This document shows positions 10,720 through 27,893 of a stretch of DNA of 64,000 bases, piece by piece (within the stretch, counting starts at the first letter, position 1; the number at the start of each line of letters is the position of its first letter). Position numbers and translations under genes: made by a program. The notes beneath the pieces were generated by a model. The model was not told the DNA's origin. It ran no database searches and saw nothing but the letters and a program-made list of their open reading frames with translations. The DNA is taken from positions 32,001 to 96,000 of the IMG/VR virus record IMGVR_UViG_3300021440_000014; one strand, written 5' to 3'. The DNA is from a virus.

Positions 10720-11058
10720 TTATTTACCTTCGCCGAGAATTTTTAATGCGCTAGTTGAAATACTTTTGCCATTATTGGTTTGTTTTGCGGGCATTTTATA
10801 TAAACCAACGTATGCATTAAACTCTTTAACGAGTTTTCTGACGATAAGATCTCTGTTATCGCTGGGCTGAACACCAACTTTTCTTGCGTGAAGTTGTAAA
10901 TCAGACAGATTCATAGATTGAATCTCTTTGATATATTCGTCTAGCTTAAGTGTTCCGTATTTAGTCATTCCTTTGTCACCCCAAACTTGATCTAGAGTAG
11001 AGGGCGCGAAATTTTCTTCTTTACCGTTAATTTGAGTGATTTTTTTTGGTTTTGCCAT
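10720..11058 (-). CDS. Small protein with a HeH/Rho-N-like helical motif
   Basis: MNLSDLQLHARKVGV...RDLIVRKL pattern. Confidence 0.45.
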   Translation of the reverse strand: MAKPKKITQINGKEENFAPSTLDQVWGDKGMTKYGTLKLDEYIKEIQSMNLSDLQLHARKVGVQPSDNRDLIVRKLVKEFNAYVGLYKMPAKQTNNGKSISTSALKILGEGK

Positions 11059-11091: not shown

Positions 11092-13005
11092 CTAATCTAT
11101 TTTCTTGAAGCCGGGACCGATATCTCTTCTTCTAGAGCTATTTCCAGAATAAGACGCTTTTGGATCTGCTACGAATGGATTAGTTCCATAATAATATCTA
11201 TATCCTGCGGGAATCCTTGTTGGTTCATTTTCGGTAGGCTTATATGGATCGTATGGTGGCCACTGTAAGCTACCAAAGAATGTAGGCTTTGAAGTTAAAT
11301 AAAAGCTATTTGGAATTGTTTTATCATAAGTATGAACTACATTTTTTTCATCCCAAACAATTGCAGATCCGGGAGCTAAATCGCTGGCTCTATAACTCCA
11401 ATTACCCCATCTTATCATTGTTTCTCTTACGTTAGTATCGTATTCAAGAGATTCTCTTGGATTACGAGAATCATCTCCTGAACCATTTATTATATACCCT
11501 AATTTAAAAAGCGTAGTATAAACGTTGTCGTAAGGGAAATATTTTAGATTATAACACTCGTAAATAGATTCTGGTGCCCCTCCCGTTGTTCCTCCTAAAA
11601 TATTACCAACAAACATCCAATAATGATTTCTTCTACAAACATCTACGGTTATCGTCTGGGCGTCTATAAATTCATTCCCTCTATCTTGAGAAAATATTCT
11701 ATTTCTAAGAATAGTAAAATGAGAGCTTGTCCCCCAATATTCGTCTGCTCTTATACCTGATGCTGAAAAATTTCCTTCTATTAAATTCATAAAAGGATGT
11801 CCTCCGTGCATCAAATTACTAAATCTTCTAATAATATCTGAATCTCCTTCTCCTAATCTCCACCAAATATTTGTAACGAAATTATAGCTAACTACATTTC
11901 CAGAAGTGCATCCTTCAAAACATACTGTTCCTATCGTTAGTTTTTCTGATATATTATCCGTAATCAATAAAGCAGAAGTATGAGGGCCAAGAAAAATAGG
12001 ATATGCCCTGTCTGAAGTATAATGTAAATCTCTTTCGTTTCCGACCGGAACTCCTCCATAGAGATAGCAACCGCTTATTTCTGACCATAAAGCGTTATAA
12101 ACCCAGAAAGCCCTTCTATGTGCTCCTATCAATTTCACATTTTTTACCCAACAATTAACCCATCCAAAAACCGTAATAGTATCAAACGCATCTGAGTCTA
12201 GGTTATCAAGAGTTAAATTTTCTAAACCAGCCTCCTCTACCATTGGCCCAATTCTTACCGCTTGAGGTTGGTTTGTATAAGAAAAATACAAAGGAGGATC
12301 TATTTGAACCGTCGTTGAATTAACTACGTTAGTTATTTTGACTATTTGCCCACATGGTCTAGTCCCAGATTCTCTACCCAACCAAGTAGCATACTGATTA
12401 GCTCCTCCTCCTCCTGTTCCGGCTGATGTAAAATTCGAAACAGGAAGAATAGCACCCTCATTCGTTTTAGTGTCTACTATGAGATATTGACCTACTGACC
12501 AATTATGTGTTGTAGAAGTAGTTAAATTAACGGAATCTTTTGTTGGAGACACTAAATCAAAAGCTGGATAAGTTGACCAAGAGAAATCAAAACCCATATC
12601 AAAATTAACCATTCTTTTTGATAAAAGTTTAATTGGAGTAATTACTCCTGTTTCTGCATTCGTTGAATAGGAAGATATATAAAAAAGATCTGGAGAAACC
12701 CCTTTAATAATAGTTTCATACATGTTTTCTCCTTTTAAAGTTACATAACTTGGGATTTTTAAAGCTTCATCTATTAAATATGTTCCATTTTTTAAAAGAA
12801 CAATTTTATTTGGTGGGCAGTTACTTATAGCTGCTTGTATTTGTTTCGTTGTAGCCCCCGGATTTATAATAGTATAAATTTCTCTGTCCGTATTCACCGT
12901 AGATCTAAGACCCGGATTCCAGTTTATTCTTAAATTATCTGGAATAATAGTAGAAAAACAGTTATGAATAAATAGGAAAAAAAGTAAAAAATAAATTGAT
13001 TTCAT
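11092..13005 (-). CDS. Secreted right-handed beta-helix (pectate-lyase-like/depolymerase-like) protein, copy C3
   Basis: Sec signal MKSIYFLLFFLFIHNCFS; IQAAISNCP...VLLKNGTY...VTLKG and GLENLTL beta-helix motifs; paralog of 14890..16698 and 16767..18596. Confidence 0.8.
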   Translation of the reverse strand: MKSIYFLLFFLFIHNCFSTIIPDNLRINWNPGLRSTVNTDREIYTIINPGATTKQIQAAISNCPPNKIVLLKNGTYLIDEALKIPSYVTLKGENMYETIIKGVSPDLFYISSYSTNAETGVITPIKLLSKRMVNFDMGFDFSWSTYPAFDLVSPTKDSVNLTTSTTHNWSVGQYLIVDTKTNEGAILPVSNFTSAGTGGGGANQYATWLGRESGTRPCGQIVKITNVVNSTTVQIDPPLYFSYTNQPQAVRIGPMVEEAGLENLTLDNLDSDAFDTITVFGWVNCWVKNVKLIGAHRRAFWVYNALWSEISGCYLYGGVPVGNERDLHYTSDRAYPIFLGPHTSALLITDNISEKLTIGTVCFEGCTSGNVVSYNFVTNIWWRLGEGDSDIIRRFSNLMHGGHPFMNLIEGNFSASGIRADEYWGTSSHFTILRNRIFSQDRGNEFIDAQTITVDVCRRNHYWMFVGNILGGTTGGAPESIYECYNLKYFPYDNVYTTLFKLGYIINGSGDDSRNPRESLEYDTNVRETMIRWGNWSYRASDLAPGSAIVWDEKNVVHTYDKTIPNSFYLTSKPTFFGSLQWPPYDPYKPTENEPTRIPAGYRYYYGTNPFVADPKASYSGNSSRRRDIGPGFKKID

Positions 13006-13775
13006 AAAGGATCGCTTCCAATTTTATCAGGGCTAACTCTCACTTTGTCTATTCTATAATCTGATGGAGTGTACTCAGAGTAAAACCATATTCCATTAGC
13101 TGAACCAGTTGACTTACCATTTGTTATCGCAGTGTAAAAAGATGATCCGCTGGCAGGTTTAGTTTCGCTATTCAAAGCCATAAATACTTCAGCAAGTGAA
13201 TTAGCTCCAGTTCCGGCAACATAATGTAACCATATACTTATAGTATCCGTAGGTGCTGCGGCACCAACTGTAGATATTTCTACATAGCCAGTTGATCCAA
13301 AAGCTCCTTCTATTAATTTCAAAGTGCCATTATAATTTAAATACAGCGAACAAATAGGAGTGTTATCTTGACTCCCAGACATTAAATTAAAAATAGTTGT
13401 TCCGTCTTGATATGTAACTCTTTTGAATCTAAAATACACATATACCTCTGAAGTTAAATCAAAAGCCCCAACGTAGTAGATACGAGCACCATCTTGAAGT
13501 CTTAAACTTTTAGAGCCAACAAGAGGATCTGTAGCATACGCGAATTCAACAGTTCCCACTAAAGGAAAACCAACAACAAATTGTTGAACCCAACCCGGAA
13601 GAAAAACTCCTTCTTGAGCATCCTCGAAATCTTCTTTATAAATATAAGTTGGAGCAGCCTCACAACAATCTGGGTTTTTAGTTAAATGATTTTTTCTTTT
13701 AAAGATTGAAACCTGCTGAGAAAAACACTGAGTAGATAAAAGAAATAAAAATATTAAATTTAAAATTTTTACCAT
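13002..13775 (-). CDS. Secreted ConA/lectin-like beta-sandwich protein, copy B2
   Basis: Signal peptide; EDFE...GSKSLRL...IDKVRVS pattern; paralog of 18593..19360. Confidence 0.65.
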   Translation of the reverse strand: MVKILNLIFLFLLSTQCFSQQVSIFKRKNHLTKNPDCCEAAPTYIYKEDFEDAQEGVFLPGWVQQFVVGFPLVGTVEFAYATDPLVGSKSLRLQDGARIYYVGAFDLTSEVYVYFRFKRVTYQDGTTIFNLMSGSQDNTPICSLYLNYNGTLKLIEGAFGSTGYVEISTVGAAAPTDTISIWLHYVAGTGANSLAEVFMALNSETKPASGSSFYTAITNGKSTGSANGIWFYSEYTPSDYRIDKVRVSPDKIGSDPL

Positions 13776-14890
13776 GTTGCCGTCTCCTCTGGATCAACTA
13801 AGTTCTCGAAATACCTTATGACAATGAAATATATTTTGGCTACTCCGGGTAAGTCGTCTGCGGTTTCATCAACTAATCTTCTTATTCTTAAATCTAGAAT
13901 AGCCCCAGAAGTAGACGTTGAATGCCCAAGATTTAAGTTGCCACTTGAAGAGGATTTTATTAAATCGTTAAAAGCGGTTTGCGAGCTAGTTATTTTTATT
14001 TCAGTGCCATAAGATTGATCTACTGGATCATCGTGTTCTACCATATCTGCGGATATACCCCAAACTACGGATTTACTTGGGATTGCATTTGAAGCCGACC
14101 AATAGACTTTTACCTCTACATTACCTTTATCCCAAGTTTCAGGCATCGGGACGGAAGCGCAAACAGTTTGTATAGTCGTATTTGTAAACTCCATAAAGTC
14201 TCTTCTTTTAAAATTTACGATACTTTCTTCTGTCCCATAAATTGCGCCAGCCGTAAAATTAGTTAGCATGGCTCCCGCTGGTATAGCTAAGGTTCTGTAA
14301 ATACCAGATCTAGAATTATTCCTCCACTCTCCTTCTCCAGTGGTAGAATTAGTGCATGTCCAAACGTAGTTACTTTGCGCATTGCTATTGGGAATTCTAA
14401 TGTCAAATAATGTTGGACTGCGATTATAAACATTAGTATTATATAGACCCGTTCTATTATTTTGATATGAATCACACCAAAACTTTTGATTACTATAATT
14501 AAAGAAATACATGTTAGTAGAAGGGATTCCTCCTAAAACTGGATTGCTACCATCTAACTCTTTCGCATTAGAAGGAAAATACGCAAAAACAGAATTAGTA
14601 TTAACCAATTCTACAACTACCTGTTTAAATGTATTCGCTTCGTTTGGTTGATTGGCAAATGATATAGTGAAATTATTGCTAGGATAAACTATATAGTAAT
14701 TAGTCCTCCAATCTACAACTATGTTTGTTGTATTGTTAAGTTTAATCATCGTTTTAGATCCATTTTTAAGATTAAAAATGGAAAGACCTGTCTGAACAAC
14801 GAACCCAGTAACAGGATCATATTGAACAGTTCTTAGTTGTCCGAAACAAGTAATGGCACTAAGCAATAAAAATAAAAATATATTTCTCAT
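13769..14890 (-). CDS. Secreted fibre/adaptor-like protein, copy A2
   Basis: Signal peptide; N-terminal domain paralogous to 19351..20115; extra C-terminal beta-sandwich (VPMPETWDKG). Confidence 0.6.
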   Translation of the reverse strand: MRNIFLFLLLSAITCFGQLRTVQYDPVTGFVVQTGLSIFNLKNGSKTMIKLNNTTNIVVDWRTNYYIVYPSNNFTISFANQPNEANTFKQVVVELVNTNSVFAYFPSNAKELDGSNPVLGGIPSTNMYFFNYSNQKFWCDSYQNNRTGLYNTNVYNRSPTLFDIRIPNSNAQSNYVWTCTNSTTGEGEWRNNSRSGIYRTLAIPAGAMLTNFTAGAIYGTEESIVNFKRRDFMEFTNTTIQTVCASVPMPETWDKGNVEVKVYWSASNAIPSKSVVWGISADMVEHDDPVDQSYGTEIKITSSQTAFNDLIKSSSSGNLNLGHSTSTSGAILDLRIRRLVDETADDLPGVAKIYFIVIRYFENLVDPEETATW

Positions 14891-16698
14891 TAGTCTTTCT
14901 TGATTATAATTTCAAATTTTCCTTTTCCAAAAATCGTTTCTGGCGCAGGAGTTGGATCTACTACGGGTGGGGGTTCCTGTGTTCCTCCAGAAGAAGCGGG
15001 TGGATTTACTCCATAAACATATCTATATCCTGCTGGAATATTTGTTGGCGAAAAATTAGGATTAGAAGGATCGTATGGGGGCCATTTTAGGAAACCGAAA
15101 GAAGAAGGTTTGCTAGTGAGATAAAAGCTATCAGGAATTACTTTGCTAGTAGTATCTACGACATTATTAGGGTGCCAAGTTTGACCTGAGCCAGCTATCG
15201 TATCATTTGTCCTATAGCACCAATTGCCCCATCTAATCATAGTAATCAAAGTAGAAGGATCATAGCTTGTTGCCCCACTTCCTAGGCTATTATAGCCTAT
15301 TTTCCAAATAGAAGAAATAGAACTGCTATAAGGAGCAGGCTCTCCATTAATTAATTCGTAATTTCCCTCTTGGACTTCCGTTCCGCCAAGTAAATTACCA
15401 ATGAAAGACCAATACCAATTACGTCTTTCAACGTCTACTGTCCAAGTTTGTGCGTCATCTGCGCCTCTATCTATCTGGCAAATTCTATTTCTCAACGCAG
15501 TGAAATGAGAGCTTGTTCCCCAATACTCGTCTGCCCTGATACGTCCGCCACTCCAATTTCCTTCTATAAGATTCATCATGGGGTGAGGACCATGCATAAG
15601 CGGGCCAAAGCGTCTCGGGCTATCTCCAGTATTAGACCACCAAATATTTGTAATAAAATTATAGCTGAAAACATTACCAGAAGAGTTACCCTCCCAGCAC
15701 ATACCCATCGTAAGTTTTTCGAGAATATTGTCAGTAATTAAACATGCGGTCGCGTGTGGGCCAAGAAAAGGAGCATAAGATCTATCGCTAATATAAGCTC
15801 CGCTATTATCTGTTCCTACGGGGCGACCCTCATGAATTAAACATCCATTAATTTCGAACCATAGCGCATTATAAACCCAATAAGATCTTCTATCTATACC
15901 TCTCACTTCTATGTTCTTTGTCCAGCAATTAACTGCCCCAAAAACGCCTACGTTGTCTCTAACCCTAACTGGATGACCATTTAGCGACAAATCCTCTGCT
16001 CCAGCATACTCTGTGATTCCTGTCATTTTTACTCCCTGCGGAGAATTTGCGTAGCTCCAGTAAAGAGGGGGACTAAATGTAACGCTTGTTGGAGAAACTA
16101 CTGACGTAATTTTGACAAGTTGACCAACGCATCTTCTGCCTGAGTCTCTACCTACCCAATTAGCAGAACCTAAAGAGCCAGCATGATCCATTGGGGGGTT
16201 TCCGGCTGGCTGCTCTAACATATCAAAAAGAACTAAATCTCCAGTCACCCATCCATGTGCTGTAGTTGTGCTAATTGTATCACTATCTTTAACGGCTGAT
16301 ACTATAGATTTGGCGGGTTGACTCCAACTTTCATCAAAATTATTATCGAAAGAAATAATAGTGCTTCCAGAAAAGGCTGCGGCAGGTTGAAGGATAGTAT
16401 TACTAATTCCCGCCCCCCTCAAAGTAACTTTACTTGGGATTACTAGAGTCGAAGAAAGATTATAAGTTCCAGAAGATAATTGAACTACCTGATTTTGAGG
16501 ACAAGTATCTAATGCCGATTGAATTTCTGCTTTCGTCGCTCCAGCAGCAATAGTTTTAAAAATTACTGTTCTATTGGGGATTCCGCCTCTAACTCCAGCG
16601 TCCCAATTGATTCTATAAGAAGGAGGAAGAATTTCGCTTAAGCAACTGAAAGCGAAAAACATAAAAATAATAAAAATGGTAAATCTGATTTTGTTCAT
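14890..16698 (-). CDS. Secreted beta-helix protein, copy C2
   Basis: Signal peptide; shares HGPHP.MNLIEGN and RADEYWGTS with C1/C3; Pro-rich C-terminal linker. Confidence 0.8.
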   Translation of the reverse strand: MNKIRFTIFIIFMFFAFSCLSEILPPSYRINWDAGVRGGIPNRTVIFKTIAAGATKAEIQSALDTCPQNQVVQLSSGTYNLSSTLVIPSKVTLRGAGISNTILQPAAAFSGSTIISFDNNFDESWSQPAKSIVSAVKDSDTISTTTAHGWVTGDLVLFDMLEQPAGNPPMDHAGSLGSANWVGRDSGRRCVGQLVKITSVVSPTSVTFSPPLYWSYANSPQGVKMTGITEYAGAEDLSLNGHPVRVRDNVGVFGAVNCWTKNIEVRGIDRRSYWVYNALWFEINGCLIHEGRPVGTDNSGAYISDRSYAPFLGPHATACLITDNILEKLTMGMCWEGNSSGNVFSYNFITNIWWSNTGDSPRRFGPLMHGPHPMMNLIEGNWSGGRIRADEYWGTSSHFTALRNRICQIDRGADDAQTWTVDVERRNWYWSFIGNLLGGTEVQEGNYELINGEPAPYSSSISSIWKIGYNSLGSGATSYDPSTLITMIRWGNWCYRTNDTIAGSGQTWHPNNVVDTTSKVIPDSFYLTSKPSSFGFLKWPPYDPSNPNFSPTNIPAGYRYVYGVNPPASSGGTQEPPPVVDPTPAPETIFGKGKFEIIIKKD

Positions 16699-16766
16699 AT
16701 AAGTATTATAATAATTAAAGTATGTAATATATACTTTTTTACACTATTTTAGGGATAATCAATAGA

Positions 16767-18596
16767 TTACCTGTCCATAGATTTTATATTAGGTCTTCCT
16801 TTACCATTTATGACTCTAATGTTTCCAGTTGATAGCCCAGATCCAGAACCCCCTCCACCCCCGCCTCCTTCTTGAGGGGGATTCCCTAGTCCAAAAGCTC
16901 TCCAAGCCGCAGGAAGATTAGTAGCAGTATTCATTGCTAAAGATCTAGTAGGATCAAACGGTGGCCAACTTAGCCCAGCAAAATTAGTTGGTTTAGCACT
17001 AAGATAAAATGAGTTAGTTATAGTAGTGTAAGAAGTATCTAAAACGCTGTTCGTGTGCCAAACTTGACCACTACCACTTATGCTATCATTAGTTCTGTAA
17101 GTCCAGCAGCCCCAACGAATTGTATTTGTCCATACATAAGGATCATAATTTGCACTGGTATTGCCTAAACTTTCATAGCCCAACTTCCAAATTGTTGCAG
17201 TTCCTTCTGAAAAAGATTCGCCTAATATGTATTCATAATTGCTTTCGTTGACACCGGGAGCACCACCTGCAACTTCGCCAAGAAACACCCAATTGCGGTT
17301 GTTTCTTTCAATGTCGTAAGTCCAAGCTTGTTGGGCGGGCGAACCTCTATCAACCTGAAGAACTCTATTGCGTAAGCTTACAAAACTATCTGAAGTTCCA
17401 AAGTATTCGTCTGCCCTTGTTCTGCCAGCAAGCCAATTGCCTTCAATAAGGTTTAAAGTAGGGTGAGGTCCGTGCATCAATACTGCAAAGCGGCGAGGAG
17501 GATCAGTGTTTGCGTCCCACCAGATATTAGTAGTATAATTATAAGAAAATACATTACCAGAAGCAGCACCTTCAAAAGATATCGCCATAGTAACCTTTTC
17601 TATCCAATTATCTGTAATTAAACCTGCGGAGCAGTGCGGACCAAGAAACCCACCATAGGCACGTTCGCTAGTATACTGCGCGTCATTATCATTTCCTACC
17701 GGAATACCTCCTTCAATATGGTTTGCTGAAATTGTTGGCCACAAAGCTCCATAAACCCAATATGCTCTAGATTTTATACCTCTTATATGGCACCTAGTAA
17801 CCCAACATTCTATGGCTCCTTGCCATTGAGTATTATGATCTATGGTTAAAGAGCTATTAGCGATAGTTACATCTTCCACTCCAGCCCTGTGAACTAATCC
17901 AGTTATTTTCGCTGACTGAGGGGAATTACTATAGCTACTATAAAAAGGAGGATCTATTTGAAATACAGTAGTAGATACAATATTTGTAATTTTAGATACT
18001 TGACCATTAGGGCGGTTTCCTACCGCCGCTGGTCTTCCGCAGTAATTACAATCTCCAAGTGTCCCTCTATTCCTGATAGGCTTTAAATTAGAAGTATTAG
18101 TAACTTGATCTATTATGACATAATCGCCTGCGCTGTAACCATGAGCCACGGAAGAGGTTGCATTCACGCTACCTTTTACTGGAGTGACTAAATCTCTTAT
18201 TGGTCCACTATCCCAATGGTAGCTATAACCATTATCAAACATTACTATTGTATTTCCTGAAAAAGTAGGAGCATTAGTCAATATAGTTACTCCCATGCCA
18301 GCCCCTCTTAAAGTCACGCCATCTTTACTCATCTCTATACTAGCAGAAAGAGAGTAAACTCCAGCAGATAAAAGGACTACTTGGTTCGATGGACACGCAG
18401 CTATAGCAGCATTAATTGTTGCTGCTGAAGCACCAGATACTATTGTGGTATAAATCGTTTGACGATCTGGAATGCCCCCTCTAACCCCCGGATTCCATTC
18501 TATAATTCTTTCATCTGGAATTATGGGCGAAAAGTTCTGAGATAGAGCATTAAAACAAAATGCTAATATAAATAAAATTGAAAATATTTTTTTCAT
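16767..18596 (-). CDS. Secreted beta-helix protein, copy C1
   Basis: Signal peptide; same family; poly-Gly linker and basic tail. Confidence 0.8.
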   Translation of the reverse strand: MKKIFSILFILAFCFNALSQNFSPIIPDERIIEWNPGVRGGIPDRQTIYTTIVSGASAATINAAIAACPSNQVVLLSAGVYSLSASIEMSKDGVTLRGAGMGVTILTNAPTFSGNTIVMFDNGYSYHWDSGPIRDLVTPVKGSVNATSSVAHGYSAGDYVIIDQVTNTSNLKPIRNRGTLGDCNYCGRPAAVGNRPNGQVSKITNIVSTTVFQIDPPFYSSYSNSPQSAKITGLVHRAGVEDVTIANSSLTIDHNTQWQGAIECWVTRCHIRGIKSRAYWVYGALWPTISANHIEGGIPVGNDNDAQYTSERAYGGFLGPHCSAGLITDNWIEKVTMAISFEGAASGNVFSYNYTTNIWWDANTDPPRRFAVLMHGPHPTLNLIEGNWLAGRTRADEYFGTSDSFVSLRNRVLQVDRGSPAQQAWTYDIERNNRNWVFLGEVAGGAPGVNESNYEYILGESFSEGTATIWKLGYESLGNTSANYDPYVWTNTIRWGCWTYRTNDSISGSGQVWHTNSVLDTSYTTITNSFYLSAKPTNFAGLSWPPFDPTRSLAMNTATNLPAAWRAFGLGNPPQEGGGGGGGSGSGLSTGNIRVINGKGRPNIKSMDR

Positions 18597-19360
18597 GGTG
18601 CTGACGTGGAATCTCCTACTTGAATTTTATCGTAGATTAATTCCATAATACCTGTAAAGTCTACCCAGCCTATAGCCAGCCAGTTAGCATTTGCTGTTCC
18701 TGTTCCAGTGCTTAAGCTAGTAAAATTATTTCCAGAAGTGGGACGAGAGCCATCTGTAGAGAAACATACTGAAGCAACTCCATTTGCCCCGCTACCCGCA
18801 ACGTATCTAATATAAACATGATAAGTGGTTCCATCAGACATTGTTCCAACAGTAGCAGACGAAGAGGTCGCCCCATGTCTTACTTTCAGTGCCCCGCCAG
18901 ATGTCAATAAAACATCTGCAATCCTACTTTGAGAAGAGTTCCATATTTCTAGCATTTTGGCGTCTCCAGAATTAGGTGTGCTAACTGGTCTTATCATGAA
19001 ATAAAACCATCTTTCTGATCCAGCAGTAAAAGTATTGTATATGAAACTAGAAGCATCACTTGCAGTTAATATTCTTAAAGATTGGCTACCATCTAGAACC
19101 GTAGTAGTATAGTCTTCATTAACTGTTCCTCCTCCAAGGGATTCAGTCCACGCAGGGGAAGTAGTTGAATATCCTGTTCCTTCAAAAGTTTCGTTTAAAA
19201 GAGTAGAAGTAAGTCCTCCGCTACCTCCCCCACCACCACCGCTAGACACTTTATATTTTAATATAGATGAAATAAATGAAACGTTCCTAACCCCAACTGA
19301 ATAAGAAGGCGTAAAAGAAAAAAGAATGAATAATATGATTAAATATTTTTTCATTTCCAT
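18593..19360 (-). CDS. Secreted ConA/lectin-like protein, copy B1
   Basis: Signal peptide, short N-terminal peptide, poly-Gly linker, then ETFEG...GSQSLRI domain. Confidence 0.65.
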   Translation of the reverse strand: MEMKKYLIILFILFSFTPSYSVGVRNVSFISSILKYKVSSGGGGGGSGGLTSTLLNETFEGTGYSTTSPAWTESLGGGTVNEDYTTTVLDGSQSLRILTASDASSFIYNTFTAGSERWFYFMIRPVSTPNSGDAKMLEIWNSSQSRIADVLLTSGGALKVRHGATSSSATVGTMSDGTTYHVYIRYVAGSGANGVASVCFSTDGSRPTSGNNFTSLSTGTGTANANWLAIGWVDFTGIMELIYDKIQVGDSTSAP

Positions 19361-20115
19361 TCAGAAATAGTTGTATAAACGTTCGTTCCTTCTGCGTCTA
19401 AAGTTAATATATAAGTTATCGAATTCGTAAGAGTAGACCAAATAGGAGAGTTGACGTTTGTATAAAAATAAGTTGCAAAACTAGGTCCACCTAAAGTAGG
19501 ATAAACTACAGTTCTGTTTACAAGTTGAGGTTTTATATATATAACTTTTGTTTTGCTTGTGCCAGCCTGCAAACCAGTTACATTCGTTATACTTATGTTA
19601 TTAGTAAGATACCAAGTCTCTGTTGGGACTTCCAAGTTTACTGTTAAATTACTGTTTACAGTGCTATTCGTGGCAACGTTTATAGTCGTTAAATTTTGAT
19701 ATATTTCCTGATGTGAATCTATCCAAAAAGTAGTTCCATTATATCTCATTGTGAACCAATTAGTTGACGGAGCCGCAGACATAAATGGAGTCGTAAAATT
19801 AGGCCCATTTGTAGGGAAATAAGCTATAGTAGAGTTGGTATTAACTACCTCTAAAACTATCGAGGCATAAGTTGATCCCGAACTTGGAACATTCGTCCAA
19901 GAAATAGAGAAATCATTACTCGGAGTAGCTCGGTAGTAATTCGTATTCCAACTGAGTAATACGTTTGTCGTATTGCCCAAATCAACCTGAGAATTTCTAA
20001 GTGCCGTTGGGACTAATTTTCTAGTAGAAGAATCGTATATTACAGTATTATATGTTGCCGCAAAAATAGAATTAAGCGTCAAAAAAAACAAGCAAATTAT
20101 TAATATTTTTTTCAT
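19351..20115 (-). CDS. Secreted fibre/adaptor-like protein, copy A1 (Thr/Asn-rich)
   Basis: Signal peptide MKKILIICLFFLTLNSIFA; two similar beta domains; many TN/NxT motifs. Confidence 0.6.
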   Translation of the reverse strand: MKKILIICLFFLTLNSIFAATYNTVIYDSSTRKLVPTALRNSQVDLGNTTNVLLSWNTNYYRATPSNDFSISWTNVPSSGSTYASIVLEVVNTNSTIAYFPTNGPNFTTPFMSAAPSTNWFTMRYNGTTFWIDSHQEIYQNLTTINVATNSTVNSNLTVNLEVPTETWYLTNNISITNVTGLQAGTSKTKVIYIKPQLVNRTVVYPTLGGPSFATYFYTNVNSPIWSTLTNSITYILTLDAEGTNVYTTISEWK

Positions 20116-20438
20116 TAAGAAACGTCCTCAATTACAGCGAAAATAAAATTATTTCCGGGTGGAAAAGTCATTTGGTTAGAGTCAGGAAAAGTTACCAAAA
20201 ACTCACCTTCATAAAAACCTTTTACAGATGTATCTCCAGAAACCCATGAATATTGGGCTATTCCCTGAGATGCGTCATAAACAGAGCCAGTCCTAGTAAT
20301 TATATCTCCAGAAGGGCGCAATTTATAATTAAAATTGACCAAGCAACCAGAGAGGTTAATGTTCTCTTCATTAGAGTCCTGTAGTTGAACTCTTAATACA
20401 GGGAGCACGTCCCCCTTTTTTAAATAAAAATCTATCAT
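20115..20438 (-). CDS. BppU N-terminal-like (Ig-like fibre attachment) protein
   Basis: LKKGDVLP.LRVQL...INLSG...GIAQYSW..GDT...G.Y.GEF.VTF....TFP matches the BppU_N/DUF2479 pattern. Confidence 0.75.
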   Translation of the reverse strand: MIDFYLKKGDVLPVLRVQLQDSNEENINLSGCLVNFNYKLRPSGDIITRTGSVYDASQGIAQYSWVSGDTSVKGFYEGEFLVTFPDSNQMTFPPGNNFIFAVIEDVS

Positions 20439-20452
20439 AAAATATTTTACAC

Positions 20453-23400
20453 TTATAACTTCCTAATAACTGTCCTGCTATCCGAATACGGACTCTTTAT
20501 GGTTATAAAATTACCAGCATTTTTAATCTTTGGATTTAAATTCGCATTAGAGTTTTTTATAATTATAGAACTTGAAGGAGCGACAAAAATCCTTGCTCTT
20601 GCAGACTGATGAACAGAAGAATAAGGTGCAGAACCAATAAGAGCTTTACCTGAAATGCTCTTGTCCAAAGATTTTCTAATTCTTGCAATCGCATTAATAT
20701 ATTTCTGAGCAACTAATGAAACTCTAGCTCTAGCAAGTATATTTTTGAAATTAGCATTCGCGATACTAGAAACAGCAAATTGATTTCTAAATACAGATCT
20801 AGATACTCTAGCAATAGAATTAATATTTTTCTGCGAAGAAATTTTAATCCTTGCGATTGCTAACTGATTCTTTAAGTAAAGAACTGATATAGAAGCCCTT
20901 GAAGACTGATTATAAGAGCTTGTTCTTGTTACTCTTGCTAACGATTGCTGGTTTTTAGCCAACGTAGCCGCAATCCTAGCTCTACCAGAGATAGACTGAA
21001 CCTGTAACGCGCTTCCAATTCTAGCAATACCAGATATATTTAAGCTATTCGTTTTACGTATCCTAGATATAGCCTGAATATTTTGAGCAGAAGATATATA
21101 AATAGAGCTTCTTGCGCTAATATTCTGAGAATAAGTTCTAGAAATTCTTGATACAGCATTTAAATTCTTCTGAGCCGAAGAAGTTATTCTTGCTCTAGCT
21201 GTAATTGAGTTTTGCTGTAATGCTGAACCGATTCGAGATACAGCAGAAATATTGTAACCTAAAGATTTAGATAACCTAGAGATAGCCTGAATATTATAGC
21301 TATTTGTTTTTGATACTCTGGATAAAGCAGATTGATTTTTATCAAAAGTTCTCTTTACTCTTGATAAAGCCTGAATATTTTGCTGTCTTACAGCAGTAAT
21401 GCGCGAAACAGAGCTTATATTAGCCGTATTCTGCTTTTGTATCCTAGATACAGAAGAGATATTTCTATTATATGTAGCTTTAACTCTCGATACGCCACTT
21501 ATGCTATAACTAGAGCTATTTTTAATTCTAGCTATACCTTGTTGGTTTTTCGAGGCAGAAGGATTGCCGATATAAGCTCTACCAGAAATACTAGAGAACC
21601 CAATGCTGTCTTGAGAAACTCTTAATGTTACCGTATCTCCCTCTAGGACAAGATAAATTCTATGATACGTTCCATCATCGGGGCAATATAGTATTACGTC
21701 ATTTCTATAGGGGCTTGAAGTCTCCGTTTGATTTATAGAAACGAATACATTATTAGAGTCTGATTCGTCCGCGAAAACATTGTAAGCTTTAGCGGAATCT
21801 TGGCAGAACAAGTTCCAGTTTAAAGCCGCAGAAGGAGGATTAGACTGATATTGGTCTATGTTTAATGTATAAACTCCATCCTGAGTTCTTAATCTTAGGG
21901 CATACCAGTTACTAGAATTTCCTAAAATTAAAACATCTGTGGAGTCCGCATTTTTAATTACTCTTGCTACCGACTGCTGATAAACGGAGCTAGGAGTTCC
22001 ACTCGAAATATATGCTCTGGCCTGCTGAGTCTTATTAACTTGACCTCTTATGTTAGAAGTTCCAGAAATACTTCTGTCTATAGCTGCTGTTCCAATCCTA
22101 GCGACAGCCTGAATGCTCTTTATAGCTGGGGCTTTAACATTCGCTAAAGACTGAATATTTTTGCTATAAGAAACTTTTATTCTAGATATAGAGCTTTGAT
22201 TTTTGCTGCTCGTTAAAGATATCCTAGATATAGCCTGTTGGAATTTTAAGCTGGAATTGGATATTCTTGCTCTTCCTTGAATATTATTCTGTTTTGCGGA
22301 AGTTATTCTTGAAACAGATTGAATATTATAATTAGAAGCTTTCGATAATCTAGATATAGCAGATTGATTTTTCGAGAACGAAGCAGAAATTCTAGCAATC
22401 GACTGCTGATTCTTGGATATAGATATTTTTATCCTAGAAATGGCTTGAATACTATACAGCCTAGAATTGGCGACACGCGCCAAAGCCTGTATATTATTAT
22501 TACCTTTAGTCGCTGTTATTCTGGCTATACCTTGCTGATTTTTGGAAACAGAAGAGGTTATTCTAGAAACGGACTGAATATTATAAAGCTTAGAATTAAC
22601 AACTCTCGATATAGATTGTATGTTGTTATTATTCTTTGTGGCTGTTATTCTGGATAGAGCCTGCTGATTCTTTTGAGTAGAAATGAATATTCTAGAAACA
22701 GATTGGATATTATAAAATCTAGCATTGACTATTCTTGCCGTGCTCTGGATGAAATAGTTTTTACCAGAAGTAATTCTTGATATCGCTTGTTGATTTTTAT
22801 TTAGTGAATTTCTAACGGAAGAAATAGACTGAATAAATTTTTGGCCAGACGCAGTAATCTTAGCGACAGAAGATATATTCTTGAATAAACTATTACTAAT
22901 TCTAGCTCTTGCTTGCTGGAAATTATTAGTTTTAGCAGACGTTATTCTTGAGACTGCACTTAAATTATAATTACGACCAACGGAAATCCTAGAAATACCC
23001 TGTTGGTTCTTCTGAAAACTATTAGATATCTTAGCGATACCCTGAATACTTTTATTATTAGATACTGTTATCCTTGATCTTCCAGATATAGAATAATCTA
23101 AAGTTTTCGAAACCCTAGCCAAAGATTGCTGGTTCTTCTGATTGGCTATGTAAATTCTAGATATCGACTGGATATTTTTCGCTGAAGAATTTGACAGTCT
23201 AGATACAGAAGAAATATTATACTGACTACTTCTACTTACTCTAGAAATAGCCTGTATATTATAAAATTTAGATAAAGATATTCTTGATATCGCCTGCTGA
23301 TTTATAAAAGAAGATTTATAAATTCTGGCAACAGACTGTATATTTTTGGATACACTTGACTGAATTCTAGCTTTAGCTTGCTGATCCGCAGAGTCTACAA

Positions 23401-24940
23401 CTTTAATTCTAGATACTGCTTGAATATATTCTAGGTTAAAATTAGAAATTCTAGATATAGCCTGAATGTTTTTCTGGGTAGACTGTAAAATACTAGACTT
23501 ACCTTGTATATAATAATTGGAAGTAGAACTTCCTCCCCCGCCACCAGAAGGCGCATTACCAGTAAAAGGATTTAAAGCAACGGCATGTAAAAGAGCATTT
23601 GATGCCGCCATTTCAACGCTAATGTAGCCGCTTGTAAAAATGTCTCTTTCATCTAAACCATCGTTTGTAGTGCTAAACGCTGCGTTTGGCTGAGTATTAT
23701 AAACAGTTAAAGTTCCAGAGGTTCCAGATCCACCAACATCATTTGCGTATGTAAAGTTTACCGCAAATCTTTGGCTGGGACTACCAGTGACAAGAAAATC
23801 ATACCTTGGTGAAGCTTTATATCCTGAAAATTTAGATCCAGTTGGACTTGTTAAATTAACTCCAGAATATTCTATTAAACCGGCAGCTAAAGTAATTGTA
23901 TCGAAAGCCCCGCCAGTGCTTTGAATTCTTACTGTAAATGGATTATTACCAGTTCTGGGATTTAAAAGATAATATTGGTGAGCGTGATTCCAAAATGGAT
24001 CAATCGTCTTACCTATCTCCGTAAAAACTTGATCTCCCCAACAAACACCAGAAATTCCAGAAGGATTAATGCCAGTTGTTACATTACTTTGATTATATGT
24101 AATGTTAGCTATTAATATTGTATTATTATTCGAGTAAGAAGTAAACCCAGAATAAGAAACTACGTATCCGCTACTTGAGGGATCGAAAATAGATCTTTCT
24201 CCTTTGCCGGATATTAAGGCAATTGTAGTTGGCCTGTATAAAGATGCTACGCTAGATTGATTTCTACTATTTTGCCTAGTAATTCTAGAAATACCCGAAT
24301 TACGACCATAGCCCCAAGTCGTAATAGGGTTAGAGAAACCAAGCCAAGGGTTGCCCGTTTGAGTTCCAGACTCTATATAAGGCAAATCTCCAGATTGTGC
24401 ATTGTAACCAAATCTATGCGTCGCCGTTCTAGATGTCGCCAACGCTTCGTAGGCTATAAAACCAACTTCAACAACTAATCTATCACCACCAGAAACGTTA
24501 ATATTTCCGCTGACTCCAGTATAAGGAGGGAAAAATCTTCCGCTTAAAGTAGGGGATAGAGGAAACTCCTGAGATGTTCCAGAATTGGGAAATCCAGAAT
24601 AAATTACGGCTCTTAAAGCGTTAGTAGGAGTAACAGCTTTAATAAGTATAGCATACTGCTGGTTAGCTAATAAGTTATTCTCGGAAACTTGAATGATACC
24701 GCTAATAAAACCGCTAATAGACTGCGTGGCTAATTCATCAGAAACGTATTGGCGAGTAAGAACCCTATAAGGGGTTGTAGCGATTGCTTTTGTGCTTAAC
24801 TTTCCAGTAAAAGCATGGTTAACTGGATTTATGCTGAGGTATCTTTTATCCGCTTCAGTAGTTCTATTCCAGCCGCTCTCGTAATTAATGTTCGTTACGG
24901 GCGCATTACCAGACTGAATAAAATAAAAACGATATGGCAT
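20453..24940 (-). CDS. 1495-aa virion-associated repeat protein
   Basis: Two N-terminal globular domains, a Gly linker, then dozens of 14-15-aa repeats (..KNIQ.ISRI) interrupted by a triple CPDDG-type module. Confidence 0.7.
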   Translation of the reverse strand: MPYRFYFIQSGNAPVTNINYESGWNRTTEADKRYLSINPVNHAFTGKLSTKAIATTPYRVLTRQYVSDELATQSISGFISGIIQVSENNLLANQQYAILIKAVTPTNALRAVIYSGFPNSGTSQEFPLSPTLSGRFFPPYTGVSGNINVSGGDRLVVEVGFIAYEALATSRTATHRFGYNAQSGDLPYIESGTQTGNPWLGFSNPITTWGYGRNSGISRITRQNSRNQSSVASLYRPTTIALISGKGERSIFDPSSSGYVVSYSGFTSYSNNNTILIANITYNQSNVTTGINPSGISGVCWGDQVFTEIGKTIDPFWNHAHQYYLLNPRTGNNPFTVRIQSTGGAFDTITLAAGLIEYSGVNLTSPTGSKFSGYKASPRYDFLVTGSPSQRFAVNFTYANDVGGSGTSGTLTVYNTQPNAAFSTTNDGLDERDIFTSGYISVEMAASNALLHAVALNPFTGNAPSGGGGGSSTSNYYIQGKSSILQSTQKNIQAISRISNFNLEYIQAVSRIKVVDSADQQAKARIQSSVSKNIQSVARIYKSSFINQQAISRISLSKFYNIQAISRVSRSSQYNISSVSRLSNSSAKNIQSISRIYIANQKNQQSLARVSKTLDYSISGRSRITVSNNKSIQGIAKISNSFQKNQQGISRISVGRNYNLSAVSRITSAKTNNFQQARARISNSLFKNISSVAKITASGQKFIQSISSVRNSLNKNQQAISRITSGKNYFIQSTARIVNARFYNIQSVSRIFISTQKNQQALSRITATKNNNNIQSISRVVNSKLYNIQSVSRITSSVSKNQQGIARITATKGNNNIQALARVANSRLYSIQAISRIKISISKNQQSIARISASFSKNQSAISRLSKASNYNIQSVSRITSAKQNNIQGRARISNSSLKFQQAISRISLTSSKNQSSISRIKVSYSKNIQSLANVKAPAIKSIQAVARIGTAAIDRSISGTSNIRGQVNKTQQARAYISSGTPSSVYQQSVARVIKNADSTDVLILGNSSNWYALRLRTQDGVYTLNIDQYQSNPPSAALNWNLFCQDSAKAYNVFADESDSNNVFVSINQTETSSPYRNDVILYCPDDGTYHRIYLVLEGDTVTLRVSQDSIGFSSISGRAYIGNPSASKNQQGIARIKNSSSYSISGVSRVKATYNRNISSVSRIQKQNTANISSVSRITAVRQQNIQALSRVKRTFDKNQSALSRVSKTNSYNIQAISRLSKSLGYNISAVSRIGSALQQNSITARARITSSAQKNLNAVSRISRTYSQNISARSSIYISSAQNIQAISRIRKTNSLNISGIARIGSALQVQSISGRARIAATLAKNQQSLARVTRTSSYNQSSRASISVLYLKNQLAIARIKISSQKNINSIARVSRSVFRNQFAVSSIANANFKNILARARVSLVAQKYINAIARIRKSLDKSISGKALIGSAPYSSVHQSARARIFVAPSSSIIIKNSNANLNPKIKNAGNFITIKSPYSDSRTVIRKL

Positions 24941-25014
24941 AAAAACTTAACCATATCTCTACTTTTATATTGTATTATAACTAAGAGATATTGTATTATC
25001 TCTATTTATTACAC

Positions 25015-25413
25015 TTATTCTAGCTCAATAACATATTGCACATTATTGCCATGAATATCTAACGCTTGCCAACCTAACTTAAATGTGACTTCTTTATGTA
25101 GCGGCTCTAAACCTTGAGTAAAATTCAAAACATTTCTTCTGAAATAGATAATTCTTCTATTGGTAAAAAAATGCTCGGAATTGTGGATGTTAAATTTTAC
25201 TCCATTAACTTCAAAATGCCCATCATTTAAATCTACTAAATAATCATTAACTCCGTCCGCCAAGCAAAACAACTCTAATTGATTACCGTTTTCCTCTTCT
25301 TTTAAAACGTCGTAAAATGAAGATTTTAATGGATCTATGGAAGAAATGTCGTCGGGCTGTTGTTGCAAAATTTTACCGTCTTTAAATCTGGCTGCAAATA
25401 GATATTTTAGCAT
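25015..25413 (-). CDS. Hypothetical protein
   Basis: 132-aa ORF, co-oriented with the module. Confidence 0.7.
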   Translation of the reverse strand: MLKYLFAARFKDGKILQQQPDDISSIDPLKSSFYDVLKEEENGNQLELFCLADGVNDYLVDLNDGHFEVNGVKFNIHNSEHFFTNRRIIYFRRNVLNFTQGLEPLHKEVTFKLGWQALDIHGNNVQYVIELE

Positions 25414-25514
25414 ATTAGTATATTAATTCCTATTTCTTATAAAAAATAAAACCCATATAATAAATTATATGAGTTTTGTTGAATTTATCTAGTTAATTTT
25501 CGTCTTATCTCAAA

Positions 25515-26207: not shown

Positions 26208-27305
26208 TTAGACAATCAAGCCGCAAACGCCACGGGCGTCAACGCAAACTCTACCTTCTTCAAGGGCACCGTAAGTTCCGATCTTTTCAGAACGGGAAAC
26301 CCACTGGTCGTCAGGAACCACGCTGAACGTAGAACCAGAGTCAGCATTTTGAGCGATAGGACGAATAAACGCTTCTCTGCTCAAGTCGAAACCAATCAAG
26401 ATTTCATCGTTTGAAGCACTGAAGGTAGCACCGTCATAGTTAGTTGAACCTGCGAATTCCGAGAAGAGAACGTTATACTTCTTACCTGCGCCAAGTTCTA
26501 GCAAGTCCGTTATAGAAACTCCATAGATTTCAGAGCTACCAGCAGAGTTGAAGATATTCTCACGAATAGCGTCAGGAAGAGGAATAGAAGTCGTGCCAGA
26601 TCCAGCCTGACGAGTATTCATCGGGTTGAATGCGAAGTTACGAATCTGTTCTTTAACTTCTGGGCTAACAAATAAGTCAGTAAGACCTTCCGTGTCAACT
26701 CCAGTTGCGGTTCCACCGTTGAAAGCGGCGTTAATTCTGCGAAGCTTAGTGATAAGCTTGCTCAAATCAGGAACAATAAACACGTCGTCTGTTCCAGACT
26801 GATAAACGTGCTGTAACCCCTGAGTGCTCGCTTCGGCAAGAGCCTTAAGAACAACCGCCCAAGCATTACGCTCCTGTTTAATAAGGATTTCCTGAGCCAT
26901 TCTCTCCGTTGCTTTAGCAACAACATCCAAGCGCGAACGTCTAGCATATTTCTTCATGAAAGAAATCGCTGAGTCGAGACGGTATGTGGAGATTTTCATC
27001 TCTTTCACGCCTTCAACTTGGTTCGTAGGAAGACCACCAGCTTGAGATTGCGCCCAAGTGCTAATCGTTCCAACGCTTTCGTCGTAGTATAAGTCAAGCG
27101 GAATGCTCGGACTATCATCTTCGTTATATGGCTTGTCAGAGTAAACTCTTGAAGCTGTTCCAGCAGAATTGATAACTTGCTGAATCACGGGACCGATGAA
27201 ACCGGCGAAAATAGAAACAGCCTCATTAGAAACCGTTTGATCCTTAGATCCCATCGCCTTAATTAGCTCAATCTGGTCTGGTGTATTTTTGAATTGAATC
27301 TTCAT
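26208..27305 (-). CDS. Major capsid protein (HK97 fold inferred)
   Basis: 365 aa; order portal-protease/scaffold-decoration-MCP; followed by a strong terminator. Confidence 0.8.
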   Translation of the reverse strand: MKIQFKNTPDQIELIKAMGSKDQTVSNEAVSIFAGFIGPVIQQVINSAGTASRVYSDKPYNEDDSPSIPLDLYYDESVGTISTWAQSQAGGLPTNQVEGVKEMKISTYRLDSAISFMKKYARRSRLDVVAKATERMAQEILIKQERNAWAVVLKALAEASTQGLQHVYQSGTDDVFIVPDLSKLITKLRRINAAFNGGTATGVDTEGLTDLFVSPEVKEQIRNFAFNPMNTRQAGSGTTSIPLPDAIRENIFNSAGSSEIYGVSITDLLELGAGKKYNVLFSEFAGSTNYDGATFSASNDEILIGFDLSREAFIRPIAQNADSGSTFSVVPDDQWVSRSEKIGTYGALEEGRVCVDARGVCGLIV

Positions 27306-27338: not shown

Positions 27339-27893
27339 TTAGAGAGTGTTGATCTTGATAAGGACTAAACCGTTTGCACTCTTCGGTCCAAGAGCAATAC
27401 CGACCTTGTTAGCTTGAGGAAGCGCAGTAGCACCTGCTCCAGTAGTATGGACAGTAAGTTCTCCGTTAGTAGTAGCGTAAAGGTTTGCACCCGGAGTAAC
27501 AACTCCGTTAACTCCGCTGTATAAGAATACACCGCGAGTAACAACAGGAACAGCCTGTCCGCTTAGAGCAACCTGCATTTCTGCGGCTTTTCTTGGGTTA
27601 TAAATGAGCTTCTCTCCGTTTTCGTCGAACTCTCTCACGTCAAAGAGGGTCATACCGATAGCGGTGTCGCCCGTTGCAGTTGCGGTAACAGCAGGACGAA
27701 CTCCGTAACGCAATGAAACTACGTTAGTATAACTTGAAGCAAATGGATCTGCGGAATGGACTTCTCCATCGCTTGTCCAGCCAGTTACAATCTTGACGAA
27801 TGTTCCTTTGTTAACGTTATCGCTACCGCTGTAACGATATAAGTTAATTACATCGTGTTCATCGTAGTCTCTGAATGGTCTTAGGTTTGGCAT
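27339..27893 (-). CDS. Capsid decoration/cement protein
   Basis: 184 aa between scaffold and MCP; AIGM...VPVVTRG...VGIALG beta-tulip-like pattern. Confidence 0.65.
   Translation of the reverse strand: MPNLRPFRDYDEHDVINLYRYSGSDNVNKGTFVKIVTGWTSDGEVHSADPFASSYTNVVSLRYGVRPAVTATATGDTAIGMTLFDVREFDENGEKLIYNPRKAAEMQVALSGQAVPVVTRGVFLYSGVNGVVTPGANLYATTNGELTVHTTGAGATALPQANKVGIALGPKSANGLVLIKINTL

Follow-up and report, generated by a model that had tools for sequence, protein, structure and literature searches.

The record IMGVR_UViG_3300021440_000014 represents an uncultured phage and consists of a single 172-kb contig, rated complete, on which 227 genes were called. The window analysed here is a stretch of 64,000 nucleotides from this record (positions 32,001 to 96,000), to which all coordinates refer. 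Among its virion genes, seven consecutive ORFs occupy positions 11092–20115 of the (-) strand in the order A1-B1-C1-C2-A2-B2-C3, A being fibre-tip-like, B ConA-like and C beta-helix proteins. The reading frames of all seven are intact, and the G+C content of the cassette is 0.38–0.40, against about 0.34–0.35 alongside. A1 (19351..20115; 254 aa) has a signal peptide, a fibre-tip-like N-domain and a C-terminal part of its own, while B1 (18593..19360; 255 aa) has a signal peptide followed by a short peptide, a Gly linker and a ConA-like jelly roll. C1 (16767..18596; 609 aa) consists of a signal peptide, a right-handed beta-helix, a Gly-rich linker and a basic tail, and C2 (14890..16698; 602 aa), the copy that was modelled, of a signal peptide, a beta-helix, a Pro-rich linker and a basic tail. 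A2 (13769..14890; 373 aa) joins a signal peptide and the A N-domain to a C-terminal domain resembling viral fibre ends; B2 (13002..13775; 257 aa) carries a signal peptide, a short peptide and a ConA-like domain, and C3 (11092..13005; 637 aa) a signal peptide, a beta-helix and a basic tail.

Upstream on the same strand lies a gene for a 107-aa protein without a signal peptide (20115..20438), which matches PF10651 (BppU_N; 27.6 bits, cut-off 23.1, E 2.6e-6) and whose stop codon shares 1 nt with the start of A1; at this length, the C-terminal part that holds receptor-binding proteins is absent. It is preceded by the gene for a 1495-aa protein (20453..24940, - strand) of about 60 basic 14-aa repeats, also without a signal, which opens the variable slot holding the cassette. 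The motif GTGTAA, which on the (-) strand lies 9–69 nt upstream of late-gene starts at 12 of 16 sites, occurs at 20447..20452 (- strand), 9 nt upstream of the BppU_N-like gene, and at 16739..16744 (- strand) inside the 68-nt gap between C1 and C2, which is the only sizeable gap of the block. These two copies head two units, the first comprising the BppU_N-like gene, A1, B1 and C1, and the second C2, A2, B2 and C3. A first-pass annotation made from the sequence alone had placed the cassette behind a BppU-like gene under GTGTAA late control, and both the domain match and the motif positions bear this out. The phage also encodes lambda-like I and J tip proteins, neither with a signal, from genes on the opposite strand about 26 kb from the BppU_N-like gene.

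The heuristic used to call signal peptides required an n-region of net positive charge, an uncharged core of 10 residues averaging at least 2.2 on the Kyte-Doolittle scale, and a small residue at each of positions -3 and -1. All seven cassette ORFs pass, with basic n-regions, uncharged hydrophobic cores and small -3/-1 residues, whereas none of the immediate neighbours does (the BppU_N-like gene at 20115–20438, the 1495-aa protein, the gene at 10720–11058 and the connector genes); the earlier description of seven signal-bearing ORFs between signal-less flanks was exact in its coordinates. Genome-wide, 18 of the 227 called genes pass, and a run of seven or more signal genes arose in none of 200,000 shuffles of gene order. 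Gln occupies the +1 position in three of the seven (C1 ALS/Q, A2 CFG/Q and B2 CFS/Q, the slash marking the predicted cut) and in two more signal-bearing genes of the phage genome. The cleavage region of C2, FSC/LSE, is atypical and can be read as a weak lipobox. Gln at +1, known as the Q-rule, is a tendency and not a requirement. PMC10367356, citing Bochtler 2018, gives it as a feature of Bacteroidota signal peptidase I substrates. Hence, the host is probably a Bacteroidota diderm.

The same signals recur among relatives of the cassette proteins. They are predicted in 93 of 113 C relatives, always directly ahead of the conserved mature N-terminus IIPxxRxIxW..GVxGGIP, in 48 of 59 B relatives and in about half of the A-profile matches (67 of 138). 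The phage copies have I/F-rich cores and a CFS/Q-type ending, whereas relatives 60–65% identical to them have Ala/Leu-rich cores; the signal has therefore been recast to suit the host and not discarded. Relatives from other phyla display, at the same position, the AxA endings typical of those phyla, so that within each family the signal follows the style of the respective host. Judged by this conservation, the signals are family traits kept through deep divergence, not accidents, and export of the cassette proteins from the cytoplasm, as originally proposed, is well supported by their sequences.

A1 and A2 are 38% identical over their first ~150 residues and share the motif by which they had been paired. 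A2 consists of two fibre-tip-like domains, the shared N-domain and a C-terminal domain that is absent from A1. The domains of A are mostly those of viral fibre ends, and no solved structure was found by sequence for the A profile. Long A relatives (800–1800 aa) likewise begin with signals.

B1 and B2 are 29% identical. The B model is a ConA-like jelly-roll beta-sandwich (pLDDT 86.6) preceded by a disordered region at residues 21–45, in agreement with the previous reading of a ConA-like fold behind a short peptide and linker. Its Foldseek matches, at TM scores of about 0.45–0.6, include PL20 glucuronan lyase (E 2e-9), TtX122, PL36 and PL7 lyases and subdomains of lectin-like toxins. B has no Pfam match at E <= 0.1, and hence no curated family such as Laminin_G_3, and comparison of its profile with a C-PKD-LamG_3 fusion protein returned an hhalign probability of 0.1%. 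B genes are found in phage and metagenome contigs, adjoining other signal-bearing genes; 12 viral contigs contain one, while five genomes carrying C have none and 401 sampled Bacteroidota genomes yielded a single, weak match. The best hits do not, then, form a host operon unrelated to phages, the outcome that the first-pass annotation had named as fatal to its reading. Small unrelated phages carry B-containing, signal-bearing trios between portal and capsid genes or beside the terminase. Gene order and a fusion protein link A, B and C: two unrelated metagenome contigs have a C gene directly after a B gene, and one protein fuses a signal, A and B (hhalign probability 99.5%).

C1, C2 and C3, 47–52% identical among themselves, match PF12708 of the pectate-lyase superfamily over their N-terminal rungs only (30.0, 34.8 and 29.9 bits respectively; cut-off 27). 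The C2 model is a right-handed parallel beta-helix (pLDDT 88) beginning right after the signal. Its helix 2–18 corresponds to the signal, the beta-helix cap is confident from about residue 21 (pLDDT 87–95), the conserved mature N-terminus starts exactly past the predicted cut and packs onto the beta-helix, and the tail at 571–602 is disordered; the description of C as a beta-helix of some 600 residues with a linker and basic tail thus stands. The model contains no particle-binding or adaptor domain ahead of the beta-helix, and C relatives align from the cleavage site onward. Phage tailspikes are among the nearest folds in structure comparison, and the family alignment has invariant acidic and basic columns (D159, E235, H369, E379, D390 and E444). 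On the model, C is a right-handed beta-helix carbohydrate enzyme of predicted activity, and since C1–C3 differ in sequence they probably differ in substrate. Relatives of C occur in the genomes of at least 274 bacterial species, and the C-type basic tail also terminates bacterial relatives outside any phage context. One relative, in Citrifermentans bremense (35% identity), is flanked by a Wzx-type flippase (Polysacc_synt), a GT2 transferase, a GNVR chain-length protein and an asparagine synthase, which by its gene content is an exopolysaccharide locus. This relative is an exported beta-helix inside a polysaccharide locus, a description that is inapplicable to the phage copies.

The cassette had been called duplicated, and the identities above uphold the paralogy. 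A recent origin is not upheld, because C1, C2 and C3 are not mutual nearest relatives in a tree of the C family and the C-terminal domain of A2 is lacking in A1; by these signs, the paralogs are old. Related phages were compared at 80 loci around related capsid genes (50–61% identity) and 12 around connector genes. These share a core order of capsid-g10720-connector genes with variable fibre genes between, and the cassette occupies the slot where they hold collagen-like fibre genes. None of the 80 and 12 loci, representing about 90 phages, contains A, B or C, and signals are almost absent from them. With a lambda-like J tip encoded elsewhere in the genome, this comparison indicates that the cassette is accessory and dispensable for the particle.

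We favour, with even confidence, the view that the cassette encodes a kit for binding and degrading host envelope polysaccharide, expressed late and exported by Sec, whose products act as free proteins of the envelope or lysate and not as particle parts. We are led to it because all seven proteins have signals, the flanking ones have none and the length of the run was never matched by chance, and because C is a beta-helix without a particle-binding domain that has a bacterial relative in an exopolysaccharide locus. Transcription of the cassette would accompany that of the virion genes, in two compact units each headed by the common GTGTAA motif, and the seven pre-proteins would cross the inner membrane by Sec and be cut by signal peptidase I. 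In the periplasm, C1–C3 may cut nascent or surface capsule or exopolysaccharide, while B and A might bind the same glycans, or assist or target the C enzymes. The infected cell and its debris would thereby be stripped of the glycan by which phages are trapped or received, and the pay-off would be easier release and spread, fewer progeny lost on debris and possibly the exclusion of other phages. The first-pass annotation had offered two fates for the exported proteins; the remodelling or degradation of host capsule or surface polysaccharide fits better than docking on virions at lysis, given the Citrifermentans locus and the existence of periplasmic beta-helix lyases (PMC6003464).

Several observations sit uneasily with free enzymes. 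In this lineage the cassette occupies the fibre slot, and its neighbours are the gene of the giant repeat protein and that of the BppU_N-like adaptor, which overlaps A1; particle appendages would predict such a placement; the A domains are mostly viral fibre ends; and the head and packaging modules that house the B-containing trios are an odd site for mere accessory enzymes. Furthermore, Sec alone leaves a protein in the periplasm of a diderm host, and the cassette proteins have neither a T9SS sorting domain nor a clear lipobox.

The first three of these points are also what recommends an alternative that we think unlikely, in which A, B and C are appendages that fold in the periplasm and join the cytoplasm-built particle at lysis, with the 1495-aa repeat fibre or the BppU_N-like adaptor as docking site for the basic C-terminal tail of C and the N-terminal peptide of B. 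Co-packing and probable translational coupling with the BppU_N-like gene, tailspikes among the nearest folds of C, and short conserved end peptides that sit behind flexible linkers and resemble docking pieces would all suit such an arrangement. Against it, no tailed phage is known to assemble in this way and dilution at lysis would be unfavourable; C has no N-terminal anchor domain; the tail of C is shared with bacterial relatives and is therefore not a phage-specific dock; about 90 relatives manage without the cassette; and a signal-less J tip is present. The docking that was first suggested thus finds no support. The broader proposition, that part of the host-recognition gear, namely fibre tips, lectins and depolymerases, is routed through Sec, matures outside the cytoplasm and joins the particle at or after lysis via its end peptides, with B as a phage-specific exported adaptor common to many unrelated phages, is likewise improbable, if anything more so.

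A third reading, which we consider doubtful, is that the hydrophobic N-termini are never cleaved, and serve either as signal-anchors in the inner membrane or, if ignored by the export machinery, as trimerisation or attachment helices of a cytoplasmic pool built into particles. The cleavage call is heuristic only, C2 is atypical at this site, and the gene neighbourhood points to a particle role; these considerations are opposed by the full n/h/c architecture with small -3/-1 residues, by the Gln +1 residues of three proteins, a feature of Bacteroidota signal peptidase I substrates (Bochtler 2018, cited by PMC10367356), by the AxA endings which relatives in other phyla have at the same position, and by the mature N-terminus of C, which is modelled with confidence from residue 21, begins exactly at the predicted cleavage point and packs against the helix. 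Last, that the block is a passenger, whether a recently captured bacterial operon of secreted enzymes or mis-assembled host DNA with no phage role, is very improbable: C relatives abound in bacteria, related phages lack the cassette and its G+C is slightly higher, but B, present in 12 viral contigs, was absent from the five C-carrying genomes and gave one weak match in the 401 sampled Bacteroidota genomes, the A domains are viral, a copy of the phage's late motif sits inside the block (16739), whose first gene has a start/stop overlap with a phage gene, and all seven frames are intact on one complete contig.

The depolymerases of phages are familiar either as particle components or as soluble by-products of cytoplasmic synthesis, and we know of no phage spikes made via export from the cytoplasm; nor did we find a paper describing Sec signals on spike-like phage proteins. 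This phage and many unrelated uncultured phages nevertheless appear to keep ordinary secretion signals on late proteins that resemble spikes, lectins and fibre tips. Should they act as free enzymes in the periplasm, phages could take apart, from within, the capsule or matrix of the very cell that they occupy. This way of achieving release or exclusion would be comparable to the action of a receptor-destroying enzyme, and the proteins would also be a supply of enzymes already able to fold when exported. Should they join the particle instead, wholly cytoplasmic assembly would no longer hold for every tailed phage. Metagenomes can be searched for further cassettes of this kind by way of the B family and of gene pairs in which C follows B.

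Among known systems, the baseplate proteins BppU/BppA/BppL of lactococcal phages of the TP901-1 and Tuc2009 type resemble the cassette in that a BppU_N-like gene is followed by receptor-binding and carbohydrate-binding partners, although here only the ~100-residue BppU N-domain is present and the next genes bear signals and lie away from the tail-tip genes. Virion-bound depolymerases and tailspikes such as LKA1 gp49 (4ru4), the Klebsiella K1 lyase (7w1c), KP34p57 (8bke) and AP22 gp54 are signal-less and have an N-terminal particle-binding or adaptor domain, whereas in C the beta-helix cap directly follows the signal peptide. Phages of Porphyromonas gingivalis have signal-peptide genes that obey the Bacteroidetes Q-rule, read by Matrishin et al. 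2023 (PMC10367356) as adapted to host secretion and able to modify the envelope. Like the cassette, these have Sec signals exposing an N-terminal Gln, but they are few, of unknown function and in temperate phages, and that account mentions neither a cassette nor folds of the spike, fibre or lectin kind. In Bdellovibrio bacteriovorus, the mosaic adhesive trimer (MAT) fibres resemble phage fibres and consist of a signal peptide, a conserved domain next to it and swappable tips (Caulton et al. 2024, PMC10769870). A has this layout in miniature, but MAT fibres belong to the surface of a predatory bacterium, unlike the phage-borne A.

Closest to the exported kit that we favour are two bacterial enzymes. 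WceF of Pantoea stewartii is an exported, tailspike-like glycanase of the stewartan locus that trims the bacterium's own exopolysaccharide (Irmscher et al. 2021, PMC7949094), and like C it combines a tailspike-fold beta-helix with an export signal; WceF, a trimer, has a Tat signal and a P22-type head-binding domain, whereas C has a Sec-type signal and no such domain. VexL is a periplasmic pectate-lyase homologue from the Vi-capsule loci of Burkholderiales (Liston et al. 2018, PMC6003464), and when expressed in S. Typhi it strips Vi capsule polymer in transit (PMC6003464). It shares with C, by description, the right-handed beta-helix and, as for the Citrifermentans relative, a gene beside those for polysaccharide assembly, but VexL is a bacterial housekeeping gene, whereas C comprises three divergent, phage-borne predicted enzymes under late control, together with A and B.

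The source record is a single viral contig of 172,010 bp, rated complete, of which the window covers bases 32001-96000. The minus strand of the window carries a late morphogenesis operon that includes the large terminase (36420-38255; phrog_2, E 2e-26; best matches approximately 25% identical), a scaffold-like gene (27339-27893), the capsid gene (26208-27305), which has more than 100 relatives at 50-61% identity in viral contigs, connector-region genes (10689-6986) and the gene for a very long tape measure protein, running from 3315 downwards. The lambda-like tail-tip proteins I and J (J with 1431 aa; phrog_31, E 1e-157) have no signal and are encoded on the opposite strand, beyond the tape measure gene. 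The I (phrog_32) and J genes lie at genome positions 20558-25506 (L144:558-5506, plus strand) and converge on the tape measure gene, an unusual division of a tail module over two strands. Between 11092 and 20115 the operon is filled, almost without spacing, by seven minus-strand ORFs in the order A1-B1-C1-C2-A2-B2-C3, with overlaps of 1-10 nt and a single gap of 68 nt between C1 and C2. Megablast of this block against deposited phages gave no match, and none of them is closely related to the phage in its DNA sequence.

Signal peptides were sought in all called genes with a home-made heuristic that required a net positive charge in the n-region, an uncharged core of 10 residues whose mean hydropathy reached 2.2 or more, and small residues at -3 and -1. 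Eighteen of 227 genes genome-wide passed, seven of which are the block ORFs, while none of the neighbours of the block did so; when the gene order was shuffled 200,000 times, no run of seven signal genes appeared. The seven consecutive signal-bearing ORFs between signal-less flanks described in the first-pass annotation are thereby upheld, and their products would be exported and cleaved. Three predicted cut sites (C1, A2 and B2) expose Gln, the residue expected after the cut under the Bacteroidetes Q-rule (PMC10367356), and this, together with I/F-rich cores, points at the level of sequence to a probable host among the Bacteroidota.

Elsewhere in the late operon, a signal-like start is found only in a 250-aa product of the head module (29843-30595, minus strand), which has a lipoprotein-type signal with the lipobox LNG|C and two further hydrophobic stretches. 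Past the window end, at genome positions 116500-121000, three further consecutive signal-bearing genes occur, all on the minus strand (L237: 872-1798, 2015-2560 and 2660-3721), encoding products of 308 aa (cut at THA|Q), 181 aa and 353 aa (cut at GFS|Q); the 181-aa product ends in Phe, as outer-membrane beta-barrels do. Together with the cassette, this trio suggests that a considerable number of phage proteins are directed to the host envelope.

Signals are a family-wide trait of A, B and C. Among C relatives with a proper start, 93 of 113 have one, always directly before the motif IIPxxRxIxW..GVxGGIP, and it is present at 91 of 109 C loci from viral contigs and bacterial genomes; in such fetched loci each ORF was read from its first start codon. 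The corresponding figures are 48 of 59 for B relatives and 67 of 138 for A-profile matches, most of the long top matches included. The organisms from which these relatives come differ greatly in composition, and every signal follows the local style, so selection has kept the signal and it is not a leftover. In the literature we found no account of phage spike or fibre proteins that carry signal peptides.

All three C copies matched PF12708 above the cut-off, and a model of C2 built with 40 relatives (pLDDT 88.3) shows a signal helix at residues 2-18, a right-handed beta-helix at approximately 21-570 and a disordered tail at 571-602, in agreement with the beta-helix and tail first proposed. On the strength of these matches and this confident model, C is a carbohydrate-active beta-helix enzyme, predicted to act as a lyase or hydrolase. 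The conserved start of the mature protein lies at the predicted cut and belongs to the fold, and the model leaves no space in which a particle-binding domain could fit. A scan of viral sequences with only C2 as the query gave no match, PHROGs offered nothing useful for A, B or C, and Pfam found no known virion-anchor domains in the long C relatives from viral contigs, some of which are plainly bacterial-type multidomain secreted proteins.

C relatives are present in the genomes of at least 274 bacterial species, including Nannocystis (52%), Bdellovibrionales, Geobacter and its kin, Planctomycetota, Chloroflexota and Acidobacteriota, mostly as lone genes. In Citrifermentans bremense the relative belongs to an exopolysaccharide locus, where its neighbours are a Wzx-type flippase, a GT2 transferase, a GNVR chain-length protein and an asparagine synthase. 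Immediately upstream of the relative (L052:8193-9740, plus strand) lies a protein of 515 aa that combines an Fn3 domain with a sialidase-like CBM and may be a bacterial counterpart of the binding-partner role proposed for A or B. Very many C relatives (P0002-P0120) end, past a Gly/Pro linker, a few residues from a PxAPxNLRV(V)-like motif that resembles the first strand of an Fn3 domain, and in others the final residues form an alternating basic stretch of the RIRGxKxK kind. From sequence, the lone tethered strand at the very C-terminus may serve for strand donation to a partner. That C tails mimic the 14-residue repeat of the neighbouring 1495-aa protein (20453-24940) was rejected; the C1 tail is weakly alike and the tails of its closest relatives are not.

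The B model (pLDDT 86.6) is a ConA-like jelly roll in which residues 21-45, the short peptide and Gly run, are disordered, and so bears out the original description of B as a ConA-like domain behind a peptide and linker. Its fold neighbours are polysaccharide lyases with a jelly roll (PL20, PL7, PL36), TtX122 domains and lectin-like toxin subdomains; no curated sequence family matched B, and the viral library contains many LamG-like phage proteins. For A, a profile search of 1.8 billion representatives returned 596 matches. The N-domain of A is found inside long proteins of 800-1800 residues, while the A2 C-domain forms the very end of many proteins and is placed in the atlas among viral clusters, one of them collagen-bearing; this terminal position and viral company make the domain a fibre-end signature, consistent with the fibre-tip-like nature first ascribed to A. 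Long A-profile matches (P0196, P0199, P0207, P0218) and the ORF L025:7141-9453 carry the motif (I/V)IRNPxTTNxxMNxPxxGW right behind their signals, and a similar RN(V/P)xF... peptide precedes the Gly linker in B1 and its close relatives; the two may represent a common docking peptide.

B looks like the phage-specific member of an A-B-C set. It is absent from five C-bearing bacterial genomes, and one weak match was found among 401 sampled Bacteroidota genomes; with an 8-row alignment as the query for the viral scan, B was found in 12 viral contigs, as well as in 9 metagenome contigs. In the viral contigs it is flanked by signal-bearing ORFs of 570-1180 residues upstream and 390-870 residues downstream, one of these flanking proteins matching pectate lyase weakly, below the threshold, and another carrying a CBM5/12. 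Such trios sit inside morphogenesis modules, one each in the interval between a portal-like gene and protease plus capsid genes, beside the terminase, and after a capsid gene. In two unrelated metagenome contigs a C relative directly follows B, and one protein is a fusion of a signal, an A-like part and the B domain, so that A, B and C are a recurring, linked set. Contigs of 43.6 kb and 35.4 kb seem to carry both B1-like and C1-like genes, the hint being only the equal size of the gene-bearing contigs. Fusions of C with PKD and LamG_3 were discarded as a Rosetta stone for B and C, their LamG_3 having no detectable relation to B. A complex prediction, run without controls, for the N-domain of A1 with the mature forms of C1 and B1 scored B at 0.00 against a mark of 0.32, a value that speaks neither for nor against a complex.

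The proposal of a duplicated cassette stands in part. Paralogy of A1/A2, B1/B2 and C1/C2/C3 is real, but recent tandem duplication is ruled out by the tree of C copies, in which C1 groups with two metagenome proteins, C2 with four others and C3 stands alone; this separate placement indicates copies that are old or separately acquired. Late control by GTGTAA, also proposed at first pass, gained support. Although the hexamer is not enriched in the window overall (22 found against 22.4 expected), 12 of the 16 window copies on the minus strand between 3341 and 41463 sit 9-69 nt upstream of late-gene starts, and it probably indicates a late promoter or leader element. One copy precedes the BppU_N-like gene (20115-20438) by 9 nt and another is within the C1-C2 gap, and from this placement the block looks like two late units, BppU_N-like-A1-B1-C1 and C2-A2-B2-C3.

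We fetched related-phage loci around capsid genes (80) and around a connector-region gene (12). Their common order is terminase, portal, protease/scaffold, capsid, the homologue of gene 10720-11058 and connector genes, with two hypervariable slots (L145-L236), before and after that homologue, between the capsid and connector genes. Slot genes are large and unrelated; several encode collagen-like Gly-X-Y runs, and product lengths reach approximately 2000 aa. Some related phages have empty slots. Signals are almost absent from the slots, and no relative of A, B or C occurs in the 80 and 12 loci. The cassette is an accessory of this lineage, dispensable in its relatives.

That the cassette occupies a fibre slot is one argument for a less likely rival explanation, in which A, B and C are particle appendages that mature outside the cytoplasm; the adjoining BppU_N-like gene with its stop/start overlap, the viral fibre-end domains in A and the end peptides on linkers also speak for it. 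We favour a late exported kit, whose A, B and C proteins would act free and unattached on the host's own capsule or matrix, since C is anchor-less, its relatives are exported enzymes of polysaccharide loci, and this is the very activity of published beta-helix enzymes that are periplasmic or exported. By analogy, the role of C may be likened to that of VexL, which breaks down Vi capsule as this passes through the periplasm (PMC6003464), and of WceF, which trims stewartan (PMC7949094).
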